Shown: one piece after another, positions 34,287-38,542 of the stretch | Layout of the letters: each line of letters begins with the position of its first letter | Numbering within the stretch: position 1 is the stretch's first letter | Assembly: GCA_963839865.1 (NCBI GenBank) | Contig: CAWIWS010000030.1 | Coordinates: 5,301-69,300, forward strand | DNA length: 64,000 nt | Reading direction: 5' to 3' | Source of the DNA: an uncultured Acidobacteriota bacterium | Lineage (GTDB): Bacteria > Acidobacteriota > Vicinamibacteria > Vicinamibacterales > UBA2999 | Program-made: the position numbers and the translations under genes | Notes under the pieces: model-generated | Told to the model about the DNA's origin: nothing | The model's database searches: none | The model's input: only the letters and a program-made list of their open reading frames with translations

Positions 34287-35630
34287 CTAGCCGCGCACCA
34301 CGGCCAGGACCGGATCGATCACGAACCGCAGGCGCGCGTGCGCATCGCGCACCGCCTGCTCCGCCTCCGCGGGGCCGGCCGCCCTCGCGAAGATGAATCC
34401 CAGATAGCTCGCCCCCTCGGGCAGCGGCACGAGCCGCTGGTCCGGCTTCGCCGTGATCTCGACGCCCGGTGACCCCTGGCACGGCCCGCGCCTCATCCAC
34501 GCCTTCCGCGCGCCGGAACACGCCCGCCCGGGGAATCGGGATCATCATCACCGCCGACGCGGGCGCTTCACGCGTCCAGTCGCGTCGTGGGCTCGCCCAG
34601 GGCGTGGCGCAGCAGCAGGTCCTCCAGGCCGCACGTCTCGCCCGAGGCGTGCGTGAAGCGCAGGGCCCGCGCGCACAGGCCGCCGATGGGCCGCGCCGCC
34701 GCCTCGAGCACGTACACGCCGTCGGCGTTTACGCGGCACTCCGCGTGCACCGGACCGTGTTCGAGATCTGATGGCGCGCGCCGCCGCCGCCACGGCCTCA
34801 CCGACCTGCCGGAGGACGCGCGTCGCCGGCCCGCGACGGCGTGACGTAGATCGTCTCCTCGAAGAACGGCCCTTCGAGCGGGTCCGGCTTGTCGAACATC
34901 GCGAGAACGCGGAGCTCGCCCCGCTCCATCAGCGCTTCGACCGCGTATTCAGCGCCTGGATGTAGCGCTCCACCTGGATGCACGTCGGCTTCGGGGTCGC
35001 GCAGCTCGCGCACCTCCGGAGCCGCCAGCAACTGCTGCACCCGCGCGAACGCGGTCCTGAAGCTCGCCGCATCGTCCACGCGGATCACGCCGCGGCTCGC
35101 CGACAGCACCGTGGGCTTGACGACGGCGGGAAACGACACGCGCGGCAGCACGCTCTCCGCCTCGACCGCGGTCGACACGGTGAAGAACGCCGGCGCCGGC
35201 ATGCCCGCGGCGACGCAGGCGCCTGCGGAACAGGCGCTTGTCCCTCGAGGCCGCCGCGGCGTCCGGACGGGTGCCCCGGCAGGCCGAGCAGTCGCGCCAC
35301 GTGGGCGGCAAGCACCGTGGGCCGATCGCCGACGGCGAGCACGCCCTGCACCGGCCGCGCCTGCAGCGCGGCAATCACCGCGTCCGCGGACCGCCATTCC
35401 TCGTGGAACCGGACGGCAATGGCGCCGTCGCGCCACGGATCGTCGAGCTGATCGCAGCGGTCGGTGGCGTACACCAGCTCCACGCCCATGCGCGTGGCCG
35501 CGTCGTCAAACATGCGCGTCTGGTACCCCGTCGTCGTCGCCAACAGGAGCACTCGGCGCGGCGCCCCGTCCCCGTGCACGTTCATCGTTGTTGAACCGTG
35601 ACTGTTGGACGTTGACGTGTTCGAGTTCAT
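34287..35630 (-). CDS. ATP-grasp domain ligase (L-amino-acid-ligase-like); several apparent frameshifts
   Basis: MNSNTSTSNSHGSTTMNVHGDGAPRRVLLLATTTGYQTRMFDDAATRMGVELVYATDRCDQLDDPW...VLAVGDRP. Then FPAVVKPTVLSASRGVIRVDD...EYAVEALMERGELRVLAMFDKPDPLEGPFFEETIYVTPS. Then HAECRVNADGVYVLEAAARPIGG. The ATG at 35628-35630 overlaps the upstream stop (ATGA). Confidence 0.75.
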
Positions 35631-37023
35631 ACCAGAGCCACCTGCTCTGCGGTGGGCTCCGCTCAACAGTACCAGGGCTCATTCAGGTAGGGCACCGCCG
35701 CGCGGATGTGGGGCGGGTAGGGCTGGTGCGAACTGGTCGGGCCGGATGACTTCGTCCACCAGTGATCGCACCGCGTCGAACACTTCCGTCCGCGGACGCG
35801 TCATCCGGACGCCGACGGTCTCCATCACGCGCGCTTGCAGCGCGTCCACGTGCGGATCGGGATGCCGCCACGGGTACGTGAGGGTCTTCGCGTCGAACGC
35901 GCCGATCAACGACCGGATGTCCGGCAACTCGAGCAGCCGCGACTGCCAGGTGACCAGCAGGCGAATCCCCCACTGCACGGGCGCGACGTGCTCGGCGAGT
36001 TGCAGCTCGTCGACGACGTCCAGCAACTCGCGATAGCCGTCGCGCGTGGTCCACGGCGTGAAGGCCACGAACGTCGGGGCCAGCGTCAGGCCTGCGTCAC
36101 GGCAGAGACCGGCGGCTTCAATGAAGTCGGCGCGCGTGTGCCCCTTCTCGAGCTTCTCGAGCACTGCGTCGTCCACGGATTCCACGGCGCTCGTCACGAA
36201 CGCGCAACCCGTGCGTGCCAGGACCGGGAGCAGGTCGCCGATGCGCGAGCAGGTGCTCGACCTTGATCGTCACGTCGTAGGTCAGCGCGGGCCACTCGGC
36301 ATGCAGCGCCTCGACGATGCCGCACGGCGTGCGCCGGGCCGTTCAGGAAATCCGGATCGCCAAACGTGATGTGTTCGCGCCCCCTGCTCCACCTGCGCGC
36401 GGATGTCGGCCAGGACCACCGTCTACCGGGACGACCCGGAACTGACCGTCGTACACGGGCACGATCGGGCAATGCCGGCAACGATGCTTGCAGCCCCGCG
36501 TGGCATCGGTTGCCCCGACGACGCGGCGCGTGCCGTCGGGCATCTGCAGCGCGGCGTAGCGCGACAAGGACGGGAGGCCGGTGCGATCGGGTTGGATGAA
36601 CGTCAGCCTGCGGAAGGCCAGGCGGGTGCGAAGACGGGGGCGAGGCGAAGGCGCGGGCGGCGACGGTGCGGTCGCGAGGGCGACGAGCGCGTCTTCGGCT
36701 TCCGGACCGAGGACGTGCGTCACGCCGTGTGCGCGGAGCAATTCGTCGTTGAGCGGCGCGTACAAGCCGTAGGCGCAGAGGATGGCCGCCGGGTTCCCGG
36801 CCCGGATGCGATCCATCACCGGCAACGCCAGCCGCGTGGCCGTGTGCATCGGCAGGTAGAACGCGACGAGGGTGGCGGCCGACGCCACTTCCGGCGGCAG
36901 CTTGTCGCGCGACAGATCGACGGCGGTCACGTCGCATCCGGCCCGCCTCAGCCATGCCGCCGGCGAGGCCAGCCCGAAGGGCTGGCGGCCCAGGTCATAG
37001 GTCGAGATCAGCAGGATGCGCAC
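35627..37023 (-). CDS. B12-binding-domain radical SAM protein with a CUAEP selenocysteine tail (in-frame UGA at 35663-35665); several apparent frameshifts
   Basis: MRILLISTYDLGRQPFGLASPAAWLRRAGCDVTAVDLS... is the B12-like N-domain. ATRGCKHRCRHCPIV is the CxxxCxxC motif. Then REHITFGDPDF, VTSAVESVDDAVLEKLEKGHTRADF and the tail RAAVPYLNEPWYC-TGA-AEPTAEQVALV-TGA. Confidence 0.8.
35635..35659 (-). other. candidate SECIS hairpin immediately downstream of the in-frame UGA
   Basis: The minus strand reads GAGCC(C)ACC-GCAGAGCA-GGTGGCTC. It starts 4 nt after the UGA. The stem is 8 bp with one bulged C, and the loop is 8 nt. Confidence 0.4.
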
Positions 37024-37030
37024 GTGCGAT

Positions 37031-38542
37031 CTATTTTCCTCCAGTTCCGGCTTCGGACGCCGCCGTCAACTTTCGCATCGAGGGCACGAACGCAAACAGG
37101 ATCAGGCCCGCGAGAATCGCGAACGCGGCCACCGCGCCGAATAGTGACGGCAGGGCGAACGACTCGTAGAATCCCGACACGCGGCCGCCAATGAAGTTGC
37201 CGACGGAGGTCGCGAGGAACCACACGCCCATCATCAGCCCGGCGATGCGCGCGGGCGCCAGCGTGGTCATCGCGCTCAGGCCTACGGGGCTCAGCACGAG
37301 CTCGCCGATCGTGTGAAGGAAGTAGGTGAACGTGAGCCACGCGGGGCTGGCGAGCGTGCCCTGCTCGGCCGCCTGGGCCGGCCAGATGAGCACGGCAAAT
37401 CCCAGGCCCGCGAAGACGAGGCCGGCGGCAAACTTGGCGGCGCTCGACGGCTCGATGCCCTTGTTGGCCAGCCGGACCCACAGCCACGCCAGCACGGGCG
37501 CAAAGATGAAGATGAAGAGCGAGTTGGTCGACTGGTGCCAGCTGCTCGGGAAGGCGTAGCCGAACACCTCGTTGTGCGTGCTGCGATCGGCAAACAGATT
37601 GAGCGTGGAGCCCGCCTGCTCGAACACCGACCAGAACAGCGCGGACGCAAAGAAGAGAACGCCGATCACGTAGAGCCGCTTGCGCTCGGCCGCGCGTCCA
37701 GTCTCCCGCGAAGAACAGCCAGCCGAAGAAGCCCACCGTCACCAGCAGCAGGAAGACGCCCGCGCCGTCGGCAATCTGCTTGGCGGTAATCGGGAGCGCG
37801 CCCGTGTACGCCGCCGAGCCCGACCACCGCGACGACGACCGCCAGGACGAGCCGCCGCCGAGCCGGCGCCCGCTTCGTCAGGGCGGCGGCCGCTTCGGGT
37901 GACGCCGCCGGCACCGGGCGCATGCCGGCGTCACCCAGGTGCTTGCTGCCCAGCATGTACTGGACGACGCCGAAGACCATGCCGAAGCCGGCCGCGGCGA
38001 AGCCCAGGTGCCAGTTGATCTGCTGGCCGAGATACCCGCACACGAGCGGCGCGATGAAGGCGCCGAGGTTGATGCCCATGTAGAAGATCGAGAAGCCCGG
38101 CGTCGCGGCGCTTGTCTTCGGCCGGGTAGAGCTGGCCGACGATGACGCTCACGTTGCCCTTGAGCAGGCCGGTGCCAATCACGATGAGGAACAGGCCGAG
38201 GTAGAACGTCGCGAGCGACGGGACGGCCATGCTGAAGTGGCCGCTCGCGATGAGGATGCCGCCGTAGAGCACCGCGCGGCGCTGGCCGATCAGGCGATCG
38301 GCAATCCAGCCGCCGGGCAGGGCCGTCATGTAGACCATCGACGTGTAGAGGCCGTAAATGGCGCCGCCCTGCGCGGCATCGAACCCGAGGCCGCCGGCGG
38401 TGATCGGCGCGGTCATGTACAGCAGCAGCAGCGCGCGCATGCCGTAGTAGCTGAAGCGCTCCCACATCTCGGTGAAGAAGAGGGTCGACAGGCCACGTGG
38501 GTGGCCAAAGAAGGCGCGATCCTGGACGGAGGTCATGGCCAT
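37031..38542 (-). CDS. POT/PTR2-family proton-dependent di/tripeptide transporter (DtpT-like); apparent frameshifts
   Basis: [33 protein letters not shown]...[26 protein letters not shown]...[22 protein letters not shown] are the PTR2 signatures. Then [33 protein letters not shown] and [16 protein letters not shown]. Confidence 0.85.

Follow-up and report, generated by a model that had tools for sequence, protein, structure and literature searches.

Introduction

The closest characterised relative of the enzyme at the centre of this locus is ArsL (NF040542), a radical SAM enzyme which generates a 3-amino-3-carboxypropyl (ACP) radical and whose substrate is bound by a Cys motif at the C terminus (10.1101/2024.02.01.577332; 10.64898/2026.04.29.721666). 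A second family, NF040546, which carries a CUAEP or CCAEP tail, has been catalogued and described as uncharacterised (Haft 2022, bioRxiv 10.1101/2022.07.06.499078), and the literature reports no product, substrate or SAM-cleavage pattern for any of its members. Here we follow up an original prediction, made on a window of 64,000 nucleotides (the whole stretch of DNA that was analysed) from an uncultured bacterium of the Vicinamibacterales, that a POT peptide transporter, a selenocysteine (Sec)-tailed B12/radical SAM enzyme and an ATP-grasp ligase form a compact operon. The prediction knew of no described function for this three-gene combination, and none is found in the published literature.

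Results

Organization and reading frames of the locus

The three genes lie on the minus strand in the order POT, radical SAM, ATP-grasp and span positions 34287-38542 of the window. The gene for the POT/PTR2-family oligopeptide:H+ symporter (37031-38542, ~503 codons; TIGR00924 and Pfam PTR2 matches) starts with the ATG at 38542 and ends with the TAG at 37033-37031; a 7-nt gap separates this stop from the GTG start at 37023 of the radical SAM gene (35627-37023), whose TGA stop (35629-35627) overlaps the ATG at 35630-35628 (GTATGA) of the ATP-grasp gene (34287-35630, stop codon at 34289-34287). These boundaries and both junctions are exactly where they had been predicted, and the motifs quoted at that time are all in place: FPAVVKP..SASRGVIRV, FDKPDPLEGPFFEETIYVTPS, GCKHRCRHCP (36492-36469) and C-TGA-AEP (TGA at 35665-35663). 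A second ATG at 35585 stands 8 codons ahead of the conserved RRVLLLATTTGYQ, and relatives show spacers between the two genes at this place; to judge from these comparisons, the true ATP-grasp start is more likely to be 35585 than the overlapping ATG at 35630. A promoter and terminator scan gave no signal exceeding shuffled expectation, and Rfam searches (gathering thresholds for the window and four loci; E <= 1 for 34000-39500) returned no relevant riboswitch or other regulatory RNA.

The genes had been presented as three clean ORFs, which does not hold: under table 11, each is split over several frames. The proteins originally described had been read across frames, the frame changes being left unmentioned. 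Frameshift-aware alignment with same-genus orthologues placed single extra bases, with an accuracy of a few nucleotides, at three sites in the POT gene (near 38098, 37812 and 37688), five in the radical SAM gene (near 36423, 36377, 36319, 36237 and 35723) and seven or eight in the ATP-grasp gene (near 35267, 35212, 34980/34961, 34827, 34769, 34582 and 34470). When the frame is followed, the trio contains no in-frame stops besides its natural stop codons and the Sec UGA, and the full-length products are 82% (POT), 74% (radical SAM) and 70% (ATP-grasp) identical to their counterparts in genome G001.

The rest of the source assembly shows the same defect. This metagenome-assembled genome (MAG) of the Vicinamibacterales comprises 30 contigs and 5.18 Mb with an estimated completeness of 64.6%, its closest relatives are only ~75% identical at the DNA level, and in most of its contigs the ORFs are shorter than in relatives. 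Among 75 orthologues mapped from same-genus genomes onto the window contig (C30) and two others (C21 and C29), 44 (59%) contain frame switches, 69 of the 82 switches being in the +1 direction; rpoB is split over two frames, and selA and selB are split too. Because these genes are split, +1 switches occur genome-wide, completeness is low and the relatives are intact, we take the ~16 one-base insertions in the trio to be errors of an insertion-prone long-read assembly, without biological meaning. With +1 insertion errors so frequent, the gene calls and pseudogene calls of this assembly are therefore unreliable. That the operon is truly decaying, with three pseudogenes born of real frameshift mutations in the organism, is hardly credible: the ~16 breaks in 4.26 kb are somewhat denser (~1.9 per kb) than the C30 average (1.16 in the same tblastn count), but the essential rpoB and the Sec machinery are broken likewise, the +1 bias is equal across several contigs of a genome with an estimated completeness of 65%, and proteins free of nonsense codons still match their orthologues over their full length at 70-82% identity. 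An alternative genetic code or programmed frameshifting was also considered and ruled out, as the breaks are frame shifts without stop codons and affect rpoB and most genes tested.

The radical SAM enzyme and its C-terminal tail

The pieces of the radical SAM gene score 245.5, 34, 36.1 and 195.3 bits, plus 23.1 bits for the tail, against NF040546 and together cover model positions 1-467; each falls below the curated cut-off of 500 bits because the gene is split by five frame errors, and L017, an intact orthologue from the same genus, reaches 570.4 bits. Both motifs by which the family is recognised are present, namely CKHRCRHC (CxxxCxxC) and the tail EPWYC-TGA-AEPTAEQVALV, which runs to the stop codon. 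Like other NF040546 members, which share CxxxCxxC and the EPWYC-U-AEP tail with Sec or Cys at one position, the window enzyme is thus assigned by its sequence to this family, without difference in kind. The 'B12' part of the original description finds no support: the window fragment reaches 19 bits where the Pfam B12-binding cut-off is 32.1, and no match is obtained for the intact orthologue. The best structural match of the fold is AprD4, ahead of TsrM and OxsB, and AprD4 is cobalamin-independent. In the AlphaFold2 model, the body is confident and the tail (residues 420-453) has low confidence (pLDDT 36-57), so that the model is uninformative on docking.

Among characterised families, ArsL, the radical SAM enzyme of arsinothricin biosynthesis, is by far the nearest, scoring 245 bits across almost the entire length as compared with at most 46 for any other. 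The two enzymes have in common a Rossmann-like N-terminal domain, the radical SAM core and a tail with Cys or Sec at the C terminus; neither a sequence nor a fold search found a solved ArsL structure. However, the orthologue score of 245 bits is below the ArsL cut-off of 450, and the tail presents two chalcogen ligands (C-U-AEP) instead of the three Cys of ArsL (RCCLKC). The genetic context differs as well: the partner is a Lal ligase here and a methyltransferase in ArsL systems, an arsM or ars operon context is absent, and no arsM, arsQ or other arsenic genes occur among the recurrent neighbours (recurrent clusters alone were annotated).

The conserved tail continues beyond the UGA in 70 loci, and 21 loci are of the Cys type at the Sec position. 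A SECIS-like hairpin (35632-35650, minus strand; stem GCAGAGC/GCUCUGG, loop AGGUG) lies 13 nt downstream of the UGA and codes for the AEQVAL part of the tail. Across 71 sequences, 91.8% of its cells are paired and 5 of the 7 pairs show compensatory changes, values reached by none of 500 shuffles, while slid controls pair at 38-52%. This AEQVAL extension is absent from the Cys-type genes, whose tails beyond AEP are variable in length and sequence. The source genome contains two tRNA-Sec genes and fragments of selA and selB; no selD was detected in the assembly, which is incomplete, and 14 of 15 genomes of the genus have the gene. Because the tail is conserved, the SECIS hairpin covaries and the genome carries tRNA-Sec, selA and selB, we read the UGA as a selenocysteine codon. 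An overlapping hairpin, GAGCCCACC/GGTGGCTC, had been noticed first and was discarded, since it is without covariation whereas GCAGAGC/GCTCTGG covaries.

As to what such a tail might do, one alternative to substrate binding is that the Cys-Sec pair acts as a redox selenenylsulfide shuttle, comparable to the GCUG of thioredoxin reductase, which would feed electrons or an H atom to a canonical 5'-dA reaction. The predicted location of the C-U pair at the tip of a flexible, low-confidence arm would suit this role, as would the replacement of Sec by Cys in the 21 Cys-type loci and the canonical CxxxCxxC motif; AprD4-type structural neighbours moreover require reducing equivalents. We nevertheless hold the shuttle to be doubtful, as the homologous ArsL has its substrate-binding Cys motif at the corresponding position and CU motifs recur in metal-handling proteins (Haft 2022, bioRxiv 10.1101/2022.07.06.499078).

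The ATP-grasp partner

The window pieces of the ATP-grasp gene match ATPgrasp_N and ATP-grasp_4, and the intact orthologue has the architecture ATPgrasp_N, ATP-grasp_4 and LAL_C2, as in the L-amino-acid ligases BL00235, BacD/YwfE and RizA. It aligns with BL00235 (PDB 3VOT) over residues 62-409 (E = 5.8e-38) and also matches BacD and RizA. The earlier association of this gene with L-amino-acid ligases is therefore borne out by both domain architecture and homology to 3VOT, and we assign the enzyme to the Lal type on these similarities. Unlike the known Lal enzymes, it belongs to no NCBIfam equivalog and forms an orthologous group of its own which co-occurs with NF040546. In one Pyrinomonadaceae locus, the ligase is fused to a sulfotransferase.

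ATP-grasp and radical SAM pairs do exist in clusters for ribosomally made, modified peptides (RiPPs), and the substrate of the two enzymes could in principle be a ribosomal peptide or the tail of the radical SAM enzyme itself. We consider this very improbable, given a full Lal architecture, LAL_C2 included, that matches ligases of free amino acids, and given Cys-type tails which vary beyond AEP in length and sequence. As had already been remarked, the operon leaves no room for a precursor gene, its gaps being 7 nt and an overlap; nor does any small ORF recur in the neighbour clusters surveyed at 80 loci, where flanking ORFs below 70 aa were covered incompletely. The enzyme is best seen as a candidate ligase of free amino acids.

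Distribution of the pair and of the transporter

The trio is intact in seven same-genus loci (L002-L008), and an intact radical SAM tail is also found in L009 and L010 (nine same-genus loci in all). The proposal of a co-directional unit of POT, Sec-tailed CUAEP radical SAM and Lal-type ATP-grasp genes that is conserved in relatives thus stands for the genus; beyond the Vicinamibacterales, the complete set of three is no longer co-conserved. The two enzymes are far more constant. The ATP-grasp gene immediately follows the radical SAM gene in ~68 of 73 loci. Of a set of 401 Acidobacteriota genomes, 72 carry the radical SAM gene and 78 the ligase orthologue; 70 have both, 2 the former alone and 8 the latter alone. 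The two genes are often unlinked (e.g. in G291, G115, G040 and G091). Because co-occurrence is near-complete even where linkage is lost, these genome comparisons show the radical SAM enzyme and the ligase as a functional pair, co-inherited across the Acidobacteriota whether adjacent or not. The pair is found in ~18% of the Acidobacteriota genomes sampled and in most Vicinamibacterales, and also in other phyla. Its near-universal presence in the Vicinamibacterales resembles housekeeping more than an antibiotic cluster. An exact-match scan with the G424 sequence detected no cultured Vicinamibacterales strain with the trio; in a protein scan, the matches were almost all MAGs, plus the cultured actinomycete Rhizohabitans arisaemae K14-0274, whose gene is of the Cys type and lacks a ligase within 3 kb.

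The transporter has a narrower distribution. Its window pieces score 162.8, 79.8 and 185 bits against TIGR00924 (cut-off 130.2, passed by the first and the last), and the intact orthologue scores 449.7 bits over the full length, as expected for a DtpT/YjdL-subfamily POT; unlike those transporters, the window POT adjoins a biosynthetic-looking pair. A POT gene is present in the flank of 47 of the 73 loci, in two adjacent arrangements seen across several families, either co-directional (with a gap of 7 nt in the window and of ~25 nt in L005) or divergent. From this distribution, we regard the POT as an accessory to the radical SAM-ligase pair that is confined to the Vicinamibacterales. It could also be a merely syntenic bystander, the functional unit being the two enzymes alone: 20 loci in other classes of Acidobacteriota all lack a POT gene within 8 kb, 26 of the 73 main-set loci have none in the flank, the POT gene of G002 is on another contig, and housekeeping genes (Mo-oxidoreductase, CofD-like, LemA and NDH-2) are just as syntenic. 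This is a real possibility that we nonetheless lean against, since the POT adjoins the module in two different arrangements across several families and a dipeptide transporter beside a dipeptide-forming ligase is a coherent functional pairing.

Recurrent neighbours of the module, besides the POT and these four housekeeping genes, are YggX and Nfu. In the window, an intact yggX (33960-34286, plus strand; its sequence was read, and the orthologue matches PF04362 and NF003817) converges on the ATP-grasp gene with zero spacer (TAG CTA), and 48 of 80 loci have a member of this family downstream of the ATP-grasp gene. YggX is an Fe(2+)-trafficking protein that protects against oxidative damage, and it is possibly an Fe-S helper for the module.

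Discussion

By analogy, the probable products of the pair are an unusual amino acid and, from it, a dipeptide. In the scheme that we propose, the radical SAM enzyme, a member of a sister family of ArsL, would use the [4Fe-4S] cluster of its CxxxCxxC motif and SAM to form a radical, most likely of the 3-amino-3-carboxypropyl type as in ArsL; the flexible C-terminal Cys-Sec arm (Cys-Cys in some lineages) would hold or activate the co-substrate, and the product would be an unusual amino acid of the 2-amino-4-substituted-butanoate type. The Lal enzyme would then use ATP to join this residue to a second amino acid, and the POT would export the resulting dipeptide or import a dipeptide as substrate. 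The neighbouring YggX (Nfu in other classes) may support the oxygen-sensitive Fe-S cluster.

Placing the amino acid first and the ligation second is favoured because of the homology with ArsL, which builds its amino acid from SAM itself. The steps might also follow the reverse order, as originally proposed, with the ligase making, or the POT importing, an ordinary dipeptide which the radical SAM enzyme then modifies. The POT family transports di- and tripeptides, the typical substrates of Lal enzymes are proteinogenic amino acids in free form (3VOT being the best solved relative), and AprD4, the closest structural match, acts on a preformed small molecule. Beyond the precedent of ArsL, this reversal has against it the absence of the POT from the module outside the Vicinamibacterales and, as weak evidence, the order of the genes, with the ligase downstream in ~68 of 73 loci; we judge it unlikely.

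Our preferred reading of the locus thus combines a trio broken by assembly, a co-inherited pair, an ArsL-like amino acid then built into a dipeptide by the Lal enzyme, and an accessory POT; as a whole, we favour it with moderate confidence. Two chalcogen ligands in place of three Cys, and the absence of arsenic genes from the recurrent neighbours, count against an ArsL-like scheme; the housekeeping-like, near-universal presence in the Vicinamibacterales, the lack of a POT in the flanks in other classes and the failure to find selD in the assembly were also counted against the joint reading.

More speculatively, NF040546 might be a second, much commoner class of ArsL-type enzymes, in which the Cys-Sec arm would carry a soft element (Se, S, As, Sb or some other) and the ACP radical of SAM would be transferred onto it, giving a new organo-element amino acid and then, through the partner ligase, a dipeptide that a dedicated POT would traffic in the Vicinamibacterales. 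We think this rather improbable; if it were true, the product would be a metabolite common in soil but so far overlooked, which serves as an antimetabolite or in the handling of metal(loid)s or redox.

The Vicinamibacterales are abundant soil bacteria, and the presence of the pair in most of them makes its product of interest. ArsL, the sole characterised relative, performs a rare radical reaction which forms a carbon-arsenic bond, and finding a selenocysteine in the equivalent place hints at new chemistry, of the carbon-heteroatom or the redox kind. With a putative dipeptide-forming ligase as partner, and here also a peptide transporter, the pathway would be concretely reconstitutable.

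Results

Conservation and genomic neighbourhood of the enzyme pair

The strongest result comes from a phylogenetic profile of one sample of 401 Acidobacteriota genomes, with ligase orthologues called above a score of 400 bits for profile A2. NF040546, the family of CUAEP/CCAEP-tail radical SAM (seleno)proteins, is present in 72 of these genomes and the ligase orthologue in 78; both genes occur together in 70, the radical SAM gene alone in two and the ligase alone in eight, counts that are non-independent through kinship. Many genomes (G291, G115, G040, G091, G042, G060 and G183) carry the pair unlinked, either separated by megabases or on distinct contigs, and since the genes co-occur all the same, the association is functional, beyond synteny.

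The original prediction had called for a test of whether the trio is conserved as a neighbourhood. Conservation holds for the radical SAM/ligase pair: among 80 loci sampled from public genomes, 73 had enough flank, and about 68 of them have the ligase gene directly 3' of its radical SAM partner. It is more limited for the POT gene, which is found within 9 kb in 47 of the 73 loci (11 adjacent and co-directional, 22 adjacent and divergent, 14 farther off) and within 8 kb in none of 20 loci from other acidobacterial classes, where the ligase is itself often elsewhere in the genome. In these comparisons the POT link is restricted to one order, the Vicinamibacterales; that the transporter is a bystander of the pair is an alternative.

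Some other neighbours relate to iron. In 48 Vicinamibacterales loci the ligase is followed by a convergent gene for the Fe(2+)-trafficking protein, yggX. In five of the 20 other-class loci (L109, L110, L111, L113 and L121), a gene for an Nfu/NifU-type Fe-S scaffold is directly 3' of the radical SAM gene and replaces, near the module, the YggX of the Vicinamibacterales. In the window, yggX is intact on the plus strand (33960-34286), and its TAG (34284-34286) abuts the ATP-grasp stop (CTA, 34287-34289); this convergent junction lacks both a spacer and a terminator-like hairpin.

The family is also found in MAGs labelled Chloroflexota, Thermomicrobiales and Burkholderiales and in one cultured actinomycete, Rhizohabitans arisaemae K14-0274 (L210, NZ_BLRH01000034.1). 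The latter carries a Cys-type member with the tail CCAEPTEEQFFRL and no ligase within 3 kb of it, and this strain offers a possible experimental handle.

Reading frames and assembly errors

All the predicted starts, stops, junctions and motifs of the trio were found in place on the minus strand. The POT gene runs from an ATG at 38542 to a TAG at 37033-37031, and 7 nt further on the radical SAM gene starts with GTG at 37023, carries CKHRCRHC at 36492-36469 and ends with the tail EPWYC, a TGA at 35665-35663, AEPTAEQVALV and the stop TGA at 35629-35627. This stop is overlapped (GTATGA) by the ATP-grasp ATG (35630-35628), whose gene ends at 34289-34287 and contains both motifs first quoted for it. 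The three genes are nevertheless not clean ORFs: none is open under table 11, and direct translation from each start yields Arg/Ala/Pro-rich out-of-frame text with stops. The protein path moves through frames 2>0>1>2 for POT, 0>1>2>0>1>2 for the radical SAM enzyme and 1>(2)>0>..>2>0>1 for the ATP-grasp. Frameshift-aware protein-to-DNA alignment to the L002 orthologues, from a genome of the same genus, required three, five and eight corrections, respectively, each a single extra base with one exception; the ATP-grasp breaks at 34980 and 34961 are close together and may be one local misalignment, hence a count of 7-8. After correction, full-length identity to the orthologues is 82% for POT, 74% for the radical SAM enzyme and 70% for the ATP-grasp, and no in-frame stop is left besides the Sec UGA and the natural one. 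Without the extra bases the three ORFs would measure about 503, 465 and 430-447 codons, respectively.

The breaks extend well beyond the trio. The source assembly (G000) comprises 5.18 Mb in 30 contigs, with an estimated completeness of just 64.6%, and rpoB is split across two frames (C21:104072-108272); selA (C21:146038-147349) and selB (C23:37820-39727) are split too. Among 75 genes from same-genus genomes mapping to G000, 44 contain at least one frame switch; the 82 switches amount to 0.82 per kb (1.16 per kb on C30, the contig holding the window, versus 0.73 on C21), and 69 of them are +1, matching the direction in the trio. GC3-chosen ORFs are shorter in most G000 contigs than in four relatives. 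Seven same-genus loci (L002-L008) carry the trio intact, and nine (L002-L010) have an unbroken radical SAM tail. Judged from these sequences, the frame breaks of the trio are evidently assembly errors, and genuine pseudogenisation is highly improbable.

Error density is uneven among G000 contigs, C1, C20, C7 and C8 looking clean and C9, C10, C4 and C23 bad. The Mo-oxidoreductase gene adjoining the trio (31076-33138) is broken too and falls into ORFs 31076-32779 and 32131-33138. In the relatives L002, L003, L004 and L010, short tandem repeats with units of 7-8 nt, such as CACAGGGTG in L010 and GGCTTAGG in L004, make up the spacer that separates the radical SAM gene from the ATP-grasp gene, just 3' of the radical SAM stop; the low-complexity MNSNTSTSNSHGSTT extension at 35586-35626 in the window may likewise be a tandem-unit spacer and not coding.

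Enzyme identities

The POT pieces in the window exceed the TIGR00924 cut-off, and their orthologue scores 450 bits. The radical SAM pieces span NF040546 model positions 1 to 467, and the intact orthologue reaches 570 bits (cut-off 500); its second-best family is ArsL (NF040542), at 245 bits and thus under its own cut-off of 450, and the remaining families score at most 46 bits. The proposed B12 label finds no support: on the window fragment Pfam B12-binding reaches 19 bits, below its cut-off of 32.1, and it does not match the intact orthologue. An AF2 model (pLDDT 81, pTM 0.81) combines a Rossmann-like N-domain with a radical SAM barrel; its nearest fold is AprD4, a B12-independent enzyme, followed by TsrM, OxsB and MgmA. 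The CU-bearing last ~35 residues are of low confidence, and this model is consistent with a C-terminal tail that acts as a flexible arm.

The ATP-grasp was correctly assigned to the L-amino-acid-ligase type: it contains ATPgrasp_N, ATP-grasp_4 and LAL_C2 domains, and among solved structures it matches the L-amino acid ligase BL00235 best (3VOT, E = 5.8e-38), ahead of further Lal enzymes, BacD and RizA. In a Pyrinomonadaceae MAG (L066:10423-12630), the ligase carries a sulfotransferase domain (Sulfotransfer_3, E = 2.4e-31) as an N-terminal fusion, and the fused gene is convergent with the radical SAM gene.

Selenocysteine decoding

The in-frame UGA of the radical SAM gene is decoded as selenocysteine. 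The post-UGA peptide AEPxAEQ(V/L)AL(V/L/I) is kept in 70 distinct Sec-type loci, whereas the tails of 21 Cys-type loci are mostly short and variable (e.g. AEPMESV, AEPAPQV), a few being longer (e.g. AEPTPQQLGAI), and all lack AEQVAL; the constraint on this motif therefore acts on the RNA. The AEQVAL stretch encodes a SECIS-like hairpin (35650-35632, minus strand) of 7 bp with an AGGUG loop. Across 71 sequences, 91.8% of cells pair and five of the seven pairs show compensatory changes, values matched by none of 500 shuffles, and slid controls gave 38-52%. An alternative hairpin, noticed first, showed no covariation. G000 carries selA, the fragmented selB and two tRNA-Sec genes (C17:31167-31262; C20:214881-214977). 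No selD was found in this assembly; 14 of 15 same-genus genomes do have the gene, which there contains an in-frame TGA and so encodes a further selenoprotein.

Discussion

We have established the enzyme classes of the module, the decoding of Sec and the coupling between its radical SAM and ligase genes. The sole characterised relative of the CUAEP enzyme is ArsL, which cleaves SAM into MTA and a 3-amino-3-carboxypropyl radical, with its As(III) substrate bound on a C-terminal Cys motif needed for activity (10.1101/2024.02.01.577332; 10.64898/2026.04.29.721666). By analogy, the CUAEP enzyme would build a 2-amino-4-X-butanoate-type amino acid on, or aided by, its Cys-Sec arm, the Lal enzyme would then ligate this amino acid into a dipeptide and, in the Vicinamibacterales, the POT transporter would move the dipeptide. 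For BL00235 the preferred N-terminal residue is Met or Leu, and a methionine-shaped product of the radical SAM enzyme would fit this preference. Two observations speak against arsenic as the substrate: the neighbours are Fe-S helper genes, not ars genes, and the module is almost universal in the order. Less probable alternatives to this putative scheme are a redox role for the tail, a reversed order of the two steps and, least probable of these, a RiPP system.

NF040546 is catalogued and was termed uncharacterised by Haft (10.1101/2022.07.06.499078); we found no published account that links this family to an L-amino acid ligase or a POT transporter. New here are the assembly-error diagnosis, the genome-level co-occurrence table, the SECIS covariation test and the order-restricted POT link. 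G000 is best described as an error-ridden record of a conserved enzyme pair, one that is real and accompanied by an order-specific transporter.
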